Source: Patescibacteria group bacterium
Lineage (GTDB): Bacteria; Patescibacteriota; Kazan-3B-28; UBA10110
Reading direction: 5' to 3'
Length of the DNA: 64,000 bases
Assembly: GCA_041659905.1 (NCBI GenBank)
Contig: JBAZXK010000001.1
Location: forward strand, 122,670-186,669
Below are positions 14,906 to 18,979 of this stretch, piece after piece. Within the stretch, counting starts at the first letter, position 1; every line of letters begins with the position of its first letter. The translations under genes and the position numbers were made by a program. Below the pieces are notes generated by a model, which did no database searches, was not told the origin of the DNA, and was given only the letters and a program-made list of their open reading frames with translations.

Positions 14906-16075
14906 ATGGACACAATTAACCCTATCCAATCAGATGCTTCAGCCCAACCCGGAGGAGACGGCTCTCTTTTAAAAAGATTTCTGTCTGAAAGCGAAACTGC
15001 CCAAATGAACATTCTCAAGCCGTTCAAACTGGTTAGTGGGGTTTTGGGTGATCTGCGCGAGCGCGAACGAGAAGTATTGGTTATGCGCTACGGTTTATCT
15101 AATAGTGAAGCCAGTAAGGAAACGCTAGAAAGTATCGGCCGGCGTTTTACTGTGACCCGGGAAAGAGTCCGCCAAATTGAACACGCTGCCTTAAAAAAGG
15201 TGAGCAAGAAATTTTCCGGATCATTGAAACCAATTATTAAAGCTATTGAGAGTTATCTTCTGGCCAATGGTAATATTGCTGAAATGGAACACTTGGCTCA
15301 ATATTTTCATTTGCAGCCAGACAATTTAGATGCTCAGCTTGATGCCAAAGCTTTACGGTTATTAATGGATGCCTATGATAAAGTAGTCCCGCTCAAAAAA
15401 CAACCTTTGTTTAAAGAAGGCTGGGTAGCCAAGACTATCACTCAAGATTTATTAGTTCAAATTGAAGCTCAGGCGCAAAAGACTTTAGAACTCTCCGGTA
15501 AAGCTATATCCGAAACAGAATTAGTGCGGCAAATCAATCAACAATTACCCAATATTGATAGCGCTTTGATCGCCGGGGTTTTCAAAGTCAGCCATAAGCT
15601 AGGCTTAGATCATCAAGGAGCTTGGGGTTTATCGGCTTGGCCGCTGGTGATGCCGCGGCGGATCCGCGATAAAGTGTTTATTGTCTTAGAAGAAGCTGGC
15701 AAACCGCTGCACTTTGAAGACATTACTCGTTTAATCCAAAAAAGATATCCATCCGAGAAAAAAGTATTGAATCGGACTGTTCATAATGAACTGATTGGCG
15801 ACGCTAGATTTGTCCTAGTAGGGCGCGGGATTTATGCCCTGAGAGTCTGGGGATATCAACCCGGAGTCGTGGCGGATGTTATCAAGCAAATATTACAAAA
15901 AGCAGGTCGGCCGCTAACGGTAGGAGAAATAGTGGCGGAAGTGCTGAAGAGCCGACAAGTGAAAAAGAATACTATTATTGCCAACTTACAGAATCACGCC
16001 TTGTTCAAAAAGGTAGCTAAATCTACTTATGTATTGTCGGGTGATCCATCTAACCCCGAACCCCATGTTAATTAA
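14906..16075 (+). CDS. sigma-70 region-4-like HTH protein with a ~280-aa uncharacterized C-terminal domain
   Basis: LREREREVLVMRYGL...ETLESIGRRFTVTRERVRQIEHAALKKV is sigma-70 region 4 with no region 2. It is coupled to the downstream VirD4-like gene by a 12-nt gap. Confidence 0.6.
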   Translation: MDTINPIQSDASAQPGGDGSLLKRFLSESETAQMNILKPFKLVSGVLGDLREREREVLVMRYGLSNSEASKETLESIGRRFTVTRERVRQIEHAALKKVSKKFSGSLKPIIKAIESYLLANGNIAEMEHLAQYFHLQPDNLDAQLDAKALRLLMDAYDKVVPLKKQPLFKEGWVAKTITQDLLVQIEAQAQKTLELSGKAISETELVRQINQQLPNIDSALIAGVFKVSHKLGLDHQGAWGLSAWPLVMPRRIRDKVFIVLEEAGKPLHFEDITRLIQKRYPSEKKVLNRTVHNELIGDARFVLVGRGIYALRVWGYQPGVVADVIKQILQKAGRPLTVGEIVAEVLKSRQVKKNTIIANLQNHALFKKVAKSTYVLSGDPSNPEPHVN

Positions 16076-16087
16076 GGAGACACACTG

Positions 16088-18979
16088 ATGGAAAATCTGT
16101 CAGGAATTATTTTATTGGTCGGTCTCGCCCTAGGGTGGATAGTGGTTATTTTGGTAGCTTGGTGGTTGCTGTTTAGACGTAAATTGATGACTCCTCGGCG
16201 CGTAGAAGGGCCTCGGGTAGATACTACCACTGGCGCAGTTTTGTTAGCCATTGATGTACCGAAAGAAAATGATAAAACCCCTTTGGCAGCCGAAGCCTTA
16301 TTTTCCAGTTTGCACGGTATTGGTGAAAGCCGATTAAGTTTCGAAATTGAAGCTAAAGAAAAATCCATCCGGTTTTATGTGTGGGTGCCGCTGGCCTTGC
16401 GCGGATATGTCGAAAGTCAGCTGTATGCCCAATACCCCAATATAAATATTATGGAAATGCGCGATTATGCTGATCCGACCAAATTACCGGAAAATCTCTT
16501 TGCGGTAGCCACGGAATTAAAATTGGGTAGGTCGGATCTATATCCCATTAAGACTTTTCTGAACTTCGACGTTGACCCTTTGGCCGCTATTACCAGTACG
16601 TTGAGTAAACTAGAAGAACATCAGCATATTTGGATTCAGTTGATCGTGTGGCCGGAAGGGAATAAATGGCGCGATCGGGCCGTCCGATTTATTAATGATG
16701 TCAGAACTGGGAACAAACGGGCTACCTTTGCTAAAGCCGTATTGAAAGAGATCGGTTTACTGATGGGTGAAGTAGTGGGGACTATCTTTAAAGGCGGGAC
16801 TTATCAACCCACAGAAAAAGTAGCTAAACCAGTGGAGTTATCGGCAGGCATGGAACAGGCCCTAAAAGAAGTGGAAGCCAAGAGTTCTAAGTTGGGTTTC
16901 AGCTCTACGCTACGGATAATTGTTTTAGATCGGCAACCAGAATTGGCGCAAAGTAAGTTACAACTGGCAGTCGGAGCTTTCAAACAATTTAATACTAACA
17001 ACCTCAATTATTTTGAAGTGGGGCAATTTGTAAATGATCAAGCTGGGATTTTGTCGGCCTACAGCCAAAGAAGTCCGGGAGTATCTAATTTTATTTTAAA
17101 TGTGACAGAATTGGCCAGTATTTATCATTTGCCGAATGTGTCGGTAACCACACCCAATATTGTCTGGGCTGGCTCTAAAAAAGGCGAACCCCCGTCTAAT
17201 TTGCCGTTGGAAGCCAGTATTCAATCCACCGAATTAACACTGCTAGCTAAAACTAACTTCCGGGGTAGTGAGGAAAAGTTTGGTATTAAACTCAAAGATC
17301 GGCGTCGGCATGTTTATGTAATTGGTAAAAGCGGCGTGGGTAAATCCGTGCTTTTAAAGAATATGGCGATTGATGATATTAGAGAAAATCGCGGCGTGGC
17401 CATGATTGACCCGCACGGAGAAGACGTCACGGATGTATTAGACTTTATACCTAATTATCGAGTGAACGATGTGATTGTATTCGACCCGGGCGACCGTGAT
17501 TTTGCGGTCGGGTTTAACATGTTTGAACTAGCTGATCCGAAATATAAAGTAGTAACTGCTTCCGGTATCGTAGGCAGCTTTAAAAACTTGTTTGCCGATT
17601 CTTGGGGCCCACGTTTGGAATATTGGCTGAAGTCGGCGGTTTTGGCACTGATGGATTATCCTAACGCCACTTTGTTGATGGTGCCGCGTATTTTTACCGA
17701 CAAGGAATTCCGCGGCAAGGTATTAGAAAGTATCCAAGACCCCATGATTAAATCGCGCTGGACGAACGAATGGCCCAAATTAGATCCGAAAGCCCAGGGT
17801 GAGGCCATTGGCCCGATTTTAAATAAGGTCGGACAATTCTTGTCCTCCCCGGTTATTAGAAACATTGTCGGTCAGCCGAAATCCAGCATCGACTTTAGAA
17901 AAGTAATGGACGAAGGCAAAATCCTGCTGGTTAAATTATCTAAAGGAATTATCGGCGACGACAATTCCAATTTATTGGGATCGATGATCGTGACCCAATT
18001 CCAGTTGGCTGCTATGTCCCGGGCCGATATTCCACCCAGTGAGCGTCGGGATTTCTATTTATATGTGGATGAGTTCCAAAACTTTGCTACCGATTCGTTT
18101 GCCACGATTCTTTCAGAGGCGAGAAAATATAATTTATCGCTCACGGTGGCTAATCAGTATATGGCTCAACTTTCGGATGAAGTCAAAAATGCCATTTTCG
18201 GCAACGTCGGAACATTAATTTCTTTCCGGGTCGGGGCGGATGATGCGGATGGTTTGATGAAAGAATTTGCACCAATATTTGATGCTAACGATCTAGTTAA
18301 TTTAAACATTTATAATATTTATTTGAAATTGTCAGTCGATGGAATGACGATGCCGGCATTTTCTGCACAAACCTTGCCGCCTCCCGCCGACCATAATCAT
18401 AATACGGAAAAAATCATTGCGCTGTCGCATGAACGTTACACCAAGCCAGCCATTTTTGTGGAAGAAAAAATCAAAGAGCTATTGGAAGAAACGGCGGCAG
18501 GCAGTGCCTATGTCCCGCGAGGGGAAACACCTAGTCGTAGTTATGGTAATAGCAGTGGTTATACTAGCAACAGCGGCGGCAGCCGACCTTTGCCTAATCG
18601 GCCAGTGCCATTTCGGCCAGCCTTAAAGGTTGATCTGCCGGGCGCTACTGACATGAAAACAGCTATTCAATCCGCTCAAACGGAAGTAGTAGTACCGCCA
18701 GTACCTAGTCAGGCTCGAGAGCCACGGCGCGAAGTGAAAAGAGTTTACCCTAGAGGTAGAGTCAAACCTCAAGAAGCAACACTCAAGAATTTGATTTCTG
18801 CTATTGAGAAGAATAAACCTAAATCTAATCTGATCCATGATCTGCAAGCCAGCGGAACTAAGCCCGGATCGACTCCGCCACCTCTTGCTCCGAAAGCGAA
18901 CGAACTCAAAGAAAACGAATGGATTTCTTTGGAAAATCTTAAAAAACAATCAGACAAAAATCAGCCCCCTCAGCAGTAA
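16088..18979 (+). CDS. membrane-anchored VirD4/TraG/TrwB-like (T4SS coupling-protein family) ATPase, paralog 1, with low-complexity S/P-rich C-terminal tail
   Basis: N-terminal TM; Walker [17 protein letters not shown], Walker-B-like LYVDEFQNF; AGGAGA SD. About 35-40% identical to the CDS at 27266-29713. Confidence 0.7.

Follow-up and report, generated by a model that had tools for sequence, protein, structure and literature searches.

A 64,000-nucleotide stretch of the genome of a Patescibacteria group bacterium of the Kazan lineage (contig JBAZXK010000001.1 of assembly GCA_041659905.1; hereafter the window, in whose positions all coordinates are given) encodes two paralogous membrane-anchored ATPases, ATP1 and ATP2, about 8 kb apart. 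Directly upstream of ATP1 lies the gene for a protein built from a sigma-70 region 4 and four winged helices, which we call the partner. An acidic 134-residue protein, s134, precedes ATP2, and a conserved 177-residue protein, s177, follows it. We refer to these genes together as the module and list their positions in Table 1. Window genes were named from Pfam scans of the open reading frames (ORFs).

The ATPases join a coupling-protein motor to DUF8128

ATP1 and ATP2 are 37% identical over 813 alignment columns (BLASTP E 2e-164), far beyond chance. ATP1 begins with a transmembrane (TM) helix at residues 4–32, followed by the Pfam domain DUF8128 (~45–375), a nucleotide-binding domain (NBD; ~395–795) of the type IV coupling protein (T4CP) type and a disordered basic tail (796–963). 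ATP2 has the same architecture with a short tail. A TM scan gave a single N-terminal hydrophobic segment in each protein and no second one. The motifs IGKTGTGKT, VDPHGDM and LYIDEFQN can be read from the ATP2 translation. An earlier note, made from the sequence of this stretch, had described two paralogous membrane-anchored ATPases like VirD4/TraG, and this description holds: the Walker A, DPHG and LYxDEFQN motifs that it quoted are all present in both translations. Its divergent low-complexity C-terminal tails apply to ATP1 (~165 residues) and hardly to ATP2, which extends only ~20 residues beyond the conserved core.

Profile searches place both NBDs in the T4CP (VirD4/TrwB/TraG) class. In Pfam, TraG-D_C scores 27.5 bits with ATP1 and 22.2 bits with ATP2 (cut-off 22), and TrwB_AAD_bind scores 21.8 bits with ATP1 and 27.4 bits with ATP2 residues 386–694 (cut-off 20.5). 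The best NCBIfam matches of both NBDs are VirD4-like and TraD models (7e-12 to 4e-13); the VirD4-like model conju_CD1115 matches ATP1 residues 403–719 at 6.7e-12. TrwB and DotL are the sole PDB sequence matches at E ≤0.001, the next being a DNA helicase (E 0.05); a HerA chain follows at E 1.2. VirB4 model TIGR00929 reaches E 1e-3 to 2e-3 (16–17 bits, cut-off 643), and the Pfam models CagE_TrbE_VirB, AAA_10 and P-loop_TraG match neither protein. The NBD does align with that of a genuine VirB4 of the Candidate Phyla Radiation (CPR) (hhalign probability 86%, E 5e-6).

The Pfam models FtsK_SpoIIIE, FtsK_gamma and FtsK 4TM gave no match in ATP1 or ATP2 at E ≤0.01. DUF87 matches, which would suggest HerA, span the P-loop stretch only (~residues 374–445), and no NurA-like neighbour occurs in any of 80 related loci. 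A clean FtsK/SpoIIIE or HerA classification, which the earlier note had set against its own proposal, was thus not what we found. Both ATPases are presumably hexameric, judging from homology. Some properties expected of T4CPs are missing. There is one TM helix and a ~330-residue DUF8128 where two TM helices should directly precede the NBD, and a context of relaxase and Dtr (DNA transfer and replication) genes or of a type IV secretion system (T4SS) cluster is absent from the window and present in three of the 80 related loci (L054, L063 and L077).

The ~330 residues between TM helix and NBD are assigned to PF26449 by precomputed Pfam annotation, in the window proteins themselves and in every homologue listed. 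We modelled ATP1 residues 1–381 with AlphaFold2 (AF2; pLDDT 85.8, 98-sequence alignment) and searched the PDB with Foldseek. The top 14 matches were all TrwK, the VirB4 of R388 (E 3e-7 to 5e-4, probability 1.0; query TM-scores 0.39–0.46); the next had E >5e-3, and no other P-loop ATPase appeared. Because the query contains no P-loop and no other P-loop ATPase was matched, we infer that the likeness is to the VirB4-specific N-terminal domain; Foldseek gave no target coordinates. By this model, ATP1 and ATP2 would each consist of a VirB4-like N-domain joined to a VirD4-like motor. The positive-inside rule, applied after the TM helix, predicts that DUF8128 is cytoplasmic. The N-terminal TM anchor proposed earlier is thus a single TM helix and no VirD4-type membrane domain, the place of which is taken by DUF8128 with its modelled fold. 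A HMMER search with DUF8128 of a full library of 1.84 billion proteins returned 2,072 clusters at 50% identity, with stand-alone and fused forms both abundant. A literature search for DUF8128 found nothing.

The partner joins sigma region 4 to winged helices

The partner has a disordered N-terminus, a sigma region 4 (residues 39–102) and four winged helices (108–175, 180–242, 253–312 and 322–377), the last two of the HARE-HTH family. Sigma70_r4 matches residues 47–100 (E 7e-14, 51.5 bits, cut-off 24.1), and HARE-HTH matches in two stretches (E 3e-14). The AF2 model (pLDDT 88.8) shows a complete sigma region 4 and four tandem winged helices; with it, Foldseek retrieves region 4 structures of sigmaA at up to ~50% identity, as well as the tandem winged-helix arrays of SelB, UFL1/DDRGK1 and Dcc1. 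The region 4 recognized earlier thus scores as a helix-turn-helix in a profile search, and what had been put down as an unknown 280-residue domain resolves into winged helices by Pfam and by the structure model. The 12-nt gap to ATP1, also reported earlier, is confirmed and holds an AAGGAG ribosome-binding site.

The recognition helix of the partner reads VTRERVRQIE, and SigA and RpoD chains in HMMER alignments show VTRER(I/V)RQIE. Six residues are invariant in 67 members of the partner family: R85, E86, R87, R89, Q90 and E92. In region 4.2 of sigma70 and sigmaA, residues at these positions read the −35 hexamer, and because of this correspondence the partner is predicted to bind TTGACA-like DNA, and possibly also the beta-flap of RNA polymerase (RNAP).

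The partner aligns with primary sigma factors over residues 39–102 and resembles the RNAP delta subunit (RpoE) over residues 253–377, since the delta N-domain has the HARE-HTH fold. It is neither. Sigma70_r2, Sigma70_r3 and Sigma70_r1_2 have no Pfam match in it, and NCBIfam sigma models align by their C-terminal 50–90 positions only, far under cut-offs; with regions 1.2, 2 and 3 absent, it cannot act as a sigma factor. Delta model TIGR04567 (RNAP_delt_lowGC) scores 35 bits (E 1.2e-8), under its cut-off of 42, and the partner lacks the acidic tail, is 389 residues long (RpoE ~170) and carries further domains, including two extra winged helices. Unlike both, this cytoplasmic protein is operonic, and co-transcribed, with a membrane ATPase.

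Conservation, fission and fusion across CPR bacteria

We scanned one genome per GTDB species. The 80 loci returned, which were selected by similarity to ATP1 and are cited by L numbers, come from Parcubacteria, Microgenomates, Berkelbacteria, Peregrinibacteria, Gracilibacteria, metagenome-assembled genomes labelled Saccharibacteria, and others. Clade membership and adjacency were counted with hidden Markov models (HMMs) of partner and ATPase and a neighbour-joining tree. In this tree, 17 sequences including window ATP2 form an ATP2 clade, and L038 and L053 make up a separate basal lineage outside it.

The co-occurrence across related genomes to which the earlier note had pointed takes a definite form. 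The partner gene is directly upstream, on the same strand, of 34 of the 66 assessable ATP1-side genes (in Parcubacteria, Kazan and other CPR bacteria) and of none of the 15 assessable genes of the ATP2 clade. The gap to the ATPase has a median of ~78 nt (range −1 to 289). Loci without an adjacent partner are mainly those of the short Microgenomates-type form (710–760 residues) and of the Peregrinibacteria and Gracilibacteria forms. The partner is also directly upstream in all three contigs of 50–58% identical homologues, two of which share with the window the order UvrC, 91-residue protein, partner, ATP1, LigA and GatCAB at 52–58% identity.

ATP2, s177, partner and ATP1 form one contiguous cluster in six loci (L004, L006, L007, L014, L036 and L079); L002 has a similar arrangement in which s177 was undetected. 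Because of these clusters, the two window paralogues seem to derive from one such cluster that has been split. The paralogues, described one by one in the earlier note, are accordingly not independent of each other.

An iterated HMM search gave 13 members of the s177 family. Ten lie directly 3' of, or are fused to, an ATPase of the ATP2 clade or of the L038/L053 type, and none of the 13 lies 3' of any other ATP1-side gene; the remaining members sit beside an opposite-strand partner gene (L015, L062) or are separated by another ORF (L060). Pfam and the PDB gave no match for s177, and a faint AbrB/MazE-like motif is not significant. No sequence relative of s134 occurs in the 80 loci, and neither s134 nor s91, the 91-residue TM protein upstream of the partner, has relatives past close genomes.

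Fission and fusion both occur in the family. ATP1 is split into a DUF8128 gene (~420–550 residues) and an adjacent ATPase gene (~500–730 residues) in ~34 of the 80 loci, and 23 of these ~34 split units are preceded by the partner. At the other end, L053 has an s177-like domain fused to the ATPase C-terminus (L053:9896–13189), and nine of the 120 best relatives of this L053-type protein carry an S1 RNA-binding domain (PF00575, E 3e-17) at the same position. These nine (P0469, P0455, P0492 and six others) are WWE3 relatives of ~940–965 residues, 40% identical to ATP1 and 36% to ATP2 and with no clear orthology to either. Comparison of s177 itself with the S1 tails by hhalign (probability 0.3%) did not show it to be an S1 domain.

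Partner-linked ATPases have longer disordered tails (median 153 residues versus 34; Mann–Whitney p = 1e-5). A loose motif at the tail end, x-G-[EQK]-x-h-x-h, occurs in 15 of 34 partner-linked ATPases against 5 of 45 others, by a regular expression chosen after seeing the data.

Other neighbours recur beside the family. In 22 of the 80 loci (L028:6031-8444 and L006:14113-16306 among them), SecD-SecF neighbours the module: Parcubacteria-type loci have it immediately 5' in the same orientation, and Berkelbacteria-type loci have it 3' and convergent. The window lacks it. This adjacency could be a functional link or mere synteny. DprA and TopA, directly adjacent to each other, stand directly upstream of partner and ATP1 in L010, L011 and L029. 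In L037 and L046 (also L055 and L056), up to eight tandem cysteine-rich paralogues of ~550 residues (family f3) surround a Microgenomates-type ATPase.

Possible links to type IV secretion, and published essentiality

The family ATPase of L054, L063 and L077 lies next to, and is transcribed away from, genes for PrgI (VirB3-like), a 218-residue ORF, a VirB4-like ATPase and an M23 peptidase. The VirB4-like ATPase is a genuine CPR VirB4, matching P-loop_TraG at 5.5e-27 in L054. Arrays of three to five T4SS_pilin genes (PF18895 family) lie ~7 kb from the family ATPase in the same three loci. The window has a pilin-like gene of this family, a possible link to the CPR T4SS. Accordingly, the earlier statement that no other T4SS genes lie nearby stands for VirB4, VirB6, VirB8 and VirB11, none of which turned up in the Pfam scan of the window ORFs (nearly all those of 110 residues or more), and falls for the pilin-like gene, the sole T4SS-type gene among them. 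With this gene and the three loci in view, a link to T4SSs has to be reckoned with.

As reported in a recent survey, 2,918 of 3,035 Patescibacteria genomes encode 5,713 VirD4-type T4CP homologues, about two per genome (Quinonero-Coronel et al. 2025, PMC12102498). Of the 3,035 genomes, 2,417 have VirB4, and only 148 of the 5,713 T4CPs are near virB4 (PMC12102498). The survey also proposes that CPR T4CPs may be exapted for another function and describes a TrsD-plus-VirB4 gene arrangement for CPR and pGO1-type systems. Our window ATPases are almost certainly the same proteins as these orphan homologues. The passages of the paper examined say nothing of the sigma-4/HARE-HTH partner, of a VirB4-like N-domain, of split genes or the four-gene cluster, or of a second paralogue that is essential.

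Transposon sequencing (Tn-seq) of the Saccharibacterium Southlakia epibionticum (Wang et al. 2023, PMC10633639) covers relatives of the module. The T4SS of this organism is essential, and its cluster has no recognisable coupling protein. SEML1_0294, a protein with Sigma70_r4 and HARE-HTH (tri-helical plus three winged domains), is the partner orthologue and is essential (PMC10633639 Tables S1, S2). Directly downstream, SEML1_0293 encodes a T4CP-like protein of 921 residues and is non-essential (PMC10633639). A second P-loop protein of the same kind, SEML1_0142 (1019 residues), is essential, as is SEML1_0141, a 139-residue ORF 12 nt upstream of it (PMC10633639). The families of SEML1_0294, SEML1_0293 and SEML1_0142 are flagged as core and Patescibacteria-enriched (PMC10633639). 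In the same organism comEC is dispensable, and SEML1_0096, a canonical FtsK complete with its alpha, motor and gamma domains, is essential (PMC10633639). From its length, its P-loop domain at 381–800 and the L053-type relatives of 1007–1097 residues, SEML1_0142 is probably the s177-linked paralogue; SEML1_0141 corresponds to s134 by position only. PMC12102498 calls the Southlakia T4CP homologue non-essential, which is true of SEML1_0293, but SEML1_0142 and SEML1_0141 are essential in the same dataset.

Polarity cannot explain the essentiality of the partner, because the downstream SEML1_0293 is dispensable. For the same reason the partner cannot be an adaptor for ATP1 alone. The pattern may fit a second role for the partner, or a motor that is toxic without it.

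Promoters and genomic context

The perfect TTGACA-17-TATAAT promoter that had been reported upstream of the partner is confirmed. Indeed, the best three sigma70-type promoter matches between 12 and 31 kb each precede a module gene: partner, s134-ATP2 and s177 (Table 1). Partner orthologues with their own intergenic region have a mean promoter match of 10.1 of 12 positions, against 8.6 of 12 for 432 other genes, and perfect promoters precede four of the 34 partner orthologues and three of the 432 other genes. As the partner carries a −35-reading helix and TTGACA-type promoters precede module genes, autoregulation is conceivable.

Table 1. Positions of the module and associated features in the 64-kb window
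Feature	Position	Strand	Remarks
T4SS_pilin-like (VirB2-class) small membrane protein	9227-9676	+	149 aa, between TopA and UvrA; PF18895 E 1.8e-7, 31.5 bits (cut-off 26.6)
s91, small single-TM protein	14502-14777	+	directly 5' of partner promoter; kept only in close relatives
Terminator-like hairpin	14808-14829		just 5' of partner promoter
Consensus sigma70-type promoter, TTGACA-17-TATAAT with extended-10 TG	14842-14870	+	for the partner-ATP1 unit; sole 12/12 match in 12-31 kb (19 kb)
Partner gene	14906-16075	+	389-aa ORF
Sigma region 4 (4.1 and 4.2) of partner	15020-15211	+	recognition helix VTRERVRQIEHAALKKV, near-identical to primary sigma factors
Two HARE-HTH winged helices of partner	15662-16036	+	PF05066 in two stretches, best residues 258-315
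ATP1	16088-18979	+	963-aa ORF
DUF8128 domain of ATP1	16220-17212	+	AF2 model and Foldseek
NBD of ATP1	17270-18472	+	Walker A GKSGVGKS, Walker B LYVDEFQN; T4CP class
Promoter match, TTGACG-17-TATAAT with TG	26778-26806	+	5' of s134-ATP2; second-best of the region (motif scan)
s134, acidic 134-aa protein	26836-27240	+	28 D+E against 12 K+R; 25 nt 5' of ATP2
ATP2	27266-29713	+	815-aa ORF
Promoter-like site, 11/12	29723-29751	+	5' of s177 (motif scan)
s177, conserved 177-aa protein	29791-30324	+	follows ATP2; N-terminal helix and beta-rich C-terminal part
Terminator-like hairpin	30633-30659		after s177

The module region is a long run of forward-strand genes with an even GC content of 0.42–0.46. 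Upstream, the order is UvrB, an AI-2E transporter (reverse strand), DprA, a low-GC restriction-modification methylase, TopA, the pilin-like gene, UvrA, UvrC and s91. The partner and ATP1 are followed by LigA, a HAD hydrolase, SIMPL, GatC, GatA, a small TM protein and GatB; then come s134, ATP2, s177, an M23 peptidase (reverse strand), Mfd and further housekeeping genes. No relaxase, integrase, flanking tRNA or repeat was found at the locus. Because of this, the even GC and the synteny kept at 52–58% identity, we conclude that the locus is a chromosomal housekeeping context holding a vertically inherited, CPR-wide module and no mobile element, in agreement with the earlier note, which had argued against a conjugative element.

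Several neighbours deserve a record of their own. The restriction-modification-type gene (4302-6959, forward strand; N6_Mtase, Eco57I and HSDR_N domains) separates DprA from TopA at a point where GC dips to 33%, and is probably a horizontally acquired insertion. A single-TM protein of 135 residues is encoded between gatA and gatB (24988-25395, forward strand), and a similar ORF occupies the same place in L001 and the P0041 contig. The M23 peptidase gene (30735-31502, reverse strand) lies just 3' of ATP2 and s177; M23-domain proteins are the cell-wall hydrolase of CPR T4SS clusters (L054:3672-5825), and the proximity may be coincidence. Adjacent genes for a LigD-type primase-polymerase and an ATP-dependent DNA ligase (48710-50593, reverse strand) form a pair like that of non-homologous end joining, additional to the NAD-dependent LigA beside ATP1.

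Discussion

The module resembles the TrwA-TrwB pair of R388 and the TraM-TraD pair of F in several ways. Its NBDs are homologous to those of TrwB, DotL and VirD4, with Walker A and B motifs, TraG-D_C and TrwB_AAD_bind matches and a membrane anchor. In R388, trwA precedes trwB in the operon, and a gene for a DNA-binding-type protein, as predicted here, stands immediately 5' of ATP1 in the same way. The tail of F TraD binds TraM, and ATP1 likewise ends in a disordered tail that carries a short motif at its tip. However, the module has no relaxase, oriT, plasmid or integrative and conjugative element (ICE) context. It consists of two chromosomal paralogues per genome, phylum-wide and partly essential. 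The N-terminus of each ATPase is one TM helix and a domain modelled as VirB4-like rather than a two-TM domain, and the partner is built of sigma region 4 and four winged helices instead of a ribbon-helix-helix.

There is also a likeness to VirB4 (TrwK). Both have an N-terminal alpha/beta domain of ~350 residues before a RecA-like NBD; the NBD aligns with that of CPR VirB4, and the DUF8128 model matches TrwK/VirB4 chains in the PDB. The splitting off of a DUF8128 gene parallels the TrsD-plus-VirB4 arrangement of CPR and pGO1-type systems (described in PMC12102498). By contrast, the NBDs fit VirD4/TraD models better than VirB4 models (1e-11 to 1e-13 versus 1e-3), and ATP1 and ATP2 have a TM helix of their own and no VirB3, VirB6 or VirB8 alongside in the window.

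We propose that the two ATPases are substrate-receptor or energising ATPases at, or working with, the CPR T4SS, and that the partner is a DNA adaptor for ATP1 in the manner of TrwA or TraM. We hold this tentatively, at a little below an even chance. The ATPases would act as substrate receptors or energisers at the cytoplasmic face of the membrane, where DUF8128 would probably dock them to the inner-membrane complex of the T4SS. The partner would use its intact −35 recognition helix to bind duplex DNA, at predicted TTGACA-like sites, and would hand this DNA to ATP1, perhaps through the long disordered tail. Because the partner is here the DNA-presenting equivalent of TrwA and TraM, the likeliest substrate would be nucleic acid that crosses the membrane without a relaxase. 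Import of DNA or nucleotides by the T4SS has already been speculated on in the field (PMC11665869). The domain identities, the paralogy, the linkage, splitting and fusion of the genes and their conservation are established, as is essentiality in published data; T4SS docking, DNA as the substrate, contact between partner and tail and the direction of transport are the steps we infer.

A number of observations weigh against this proposal. The likeness of DUF8128 to the VirB4 N-terminal domain comes from one Foldseek search of an AF2 model, at the TM-scores given above; sequence profiles detected no DUF8128-VirB4 relationship, and hhalign of DUF8128 with CPR T4SS neighbours (the TrsD-like 218-residue protein, VirB4 and PrgI) gave 0.1–0.2%, with thin templates of two to three sequences each. 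The curated T4CP equivalogs score far under their cut-offs (conju_CD1115 45 bits versus 250, SXT_TraD 41–49 versus 366), and no relaxase or channel protein is encoded with the module. The family is wider than VirB4 and rarely near virB4, so dependence of the ATPases on T4SSs is unproven. The 80 loci were chosen by similarity to ATP1, and the correlations of tail length and tail motif with the partner are confounded by phylogeny. In Southlakia the partner is essential and the adjacent ATPase dispensable, and the orthology of SEML1_0142 with ATP2 is drawn from architecture and length only. With an essential partner beside a dispensable ATPase, the dedicated module of the earlier note is too simple a reading.

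Two other explanations have to be taken seriously, although we doubt both. The ATPases could be T4SS-independent pumps or handlers of nucleic acid, for example a cytoplasmic DNA-uptake motor alongside ComEC and type IV pili, or a DNA or RNA translocase tied to export or repair, with the partner, s177 or S1 domains as the clamp on the substrate. This idea, which we consider unlikely, draws on the presence of the family in 96% of genomes, against 80% for VirB4, and on its almost never being beside virB4 (both from PMC12102498). The DNA-metabolism neighbours also suit it (DprA-TopA directly 5' of the module in L010, L011 and L029; UvrA/UvrC and LigA on its flanks in the window), as do the S1 and winged-helix accessories and the dispensability of both ATP1 and comEC in Southlakia. 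Yet there the second paralogue and the partner are essential and competence is dispensable. Moreover, none of the loci examined has a ComEC, ComFA or pilus gene beside the module, one TM helix per subunit makes no obvious channel, and the VirB4-like fold modelled for DUF8128 and the three T4SS-adjacent loci favour a T4SS. Alternatively, the partner could primarily be an essential factor that binds RNAP or promoters, with sigma region 4 on the beta-flap or the −35 element and the delta-like HARE-HTH on RNAP, its adjacency to ATP1 reflecting operon regulation or the anchoring of transcription complexes at a membrane motor and no delivery of DNA for transport. A complete sigma region 4 with the recognition helix of primary sigma factors, a fold shared with the RNAP delta N-domain and a partner that is essential beside a dispensable ATP1 all agree with this, and so do a near-perfect TTGACA promoter kept phylum-wide and three best promoters of the region that drive module genes. 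What makes it improbable in our judgement is the phylum-deep same-strand adjacency (34/66), with gaps that include −1 to 20 nt (translational coupling) and are typical of physical partners, together with long tails specific to partner-linked ATPases. Genes for RNAP subunits are not linked to the module, and a strong promoter alone is no proof of autoregulation. A search of the literature on HARE-HTH and CPR bacteria gave no mention of HARE-HTH among its ten best-ranked matches.

The module might also be a CPR-specific machine that has so far escaped notice, in which the sigma-4/delta-like partner physically tethers promoter DNA or RNAP to the VirB4/VirD4-hybrid motor and nucleic acid is threaded through the membrane without a relaxase. 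We regard this as quite unlikely. Its substrate could be host-derived DNA, or nascent RNA bound by the S1-bearing relatives, and if it were true, the essential CPR T4SS would have in the module its missing stage for selecting and energising substrates, and the auxotrophic epibionts a route to nucleotides. It is highly improbable that the ATPases are FtsK/SpoIIIE-like chromosome-segregation pumps with the partner as an external reader of the FtsK-gamma type. Both combine a membrane-anchored FtsK-HerA superfamily motor with a winged-helix module that reads sequence, and ECOD puts the P-loop domain of SEML1_0142 on an FtsK template, but the reader is a separate protein here, FtsK Pfam models do not match and T4CP models fit best. 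We reject replacement of FtsK because of the missing FtsK signatures and the canonical essential FtsK of Southlakia. Equally improbable is a remnant of an integrated conjugative element or a component of anti-phage defence such as MADS. The PADLOC model mad8 is the strongest single profile match to the NBD (5e-19 with ATP2, 2.7e-14 with ATP1), stronger than any T4CP Pfam model; region 4 of the partner also matches MzaA, and a restriction-modification gene lies within the window. These matches, however, are limited to a generic NBD or region 4, and no mad model is matched by the other module proteins scanned against PADLOC, nor are other mad or mza genes among them. The families are core, Patescibacteria-enriched and partly essential. 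We reject a mobile element or ICE relic because of GC that is even across both genes, the missing integrase, relaxase, flanking tRNA and repeats, and the conserved housekeeping synteny.

Orphan T4CPs at about two per CPR genome have already been published (PMC12102498). The sigma-4/winged-helix partner, the modelled VirB4-like N-domain, the series of fission and fusion, the four-gene cluster and the overlooked essential paralogue appear to be new.

Patescibacteria account for much of bacterial diversity and cannot make nucleotides. They rely on an essential T4SS for which the substrate and the coupling protein are unknown (PMC10633639, PMC11665869). The locus described here offers candidates for this gap: two phylum-wide ATPases with a modelled VirB4-like N-domain and a VirD4-like motor, a conserved partner predicted to read DNA, and nucleic-acid-binding fusions in relatives. 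By Tn-seq, one paralogue and the partner are essential, a point overlooked by the published analysis that calls the CPR T4CP dispensable. Through the module, what the CPR T4SS transports, and by what means, can be put to the test in genetically tractable Saccharibacteria.

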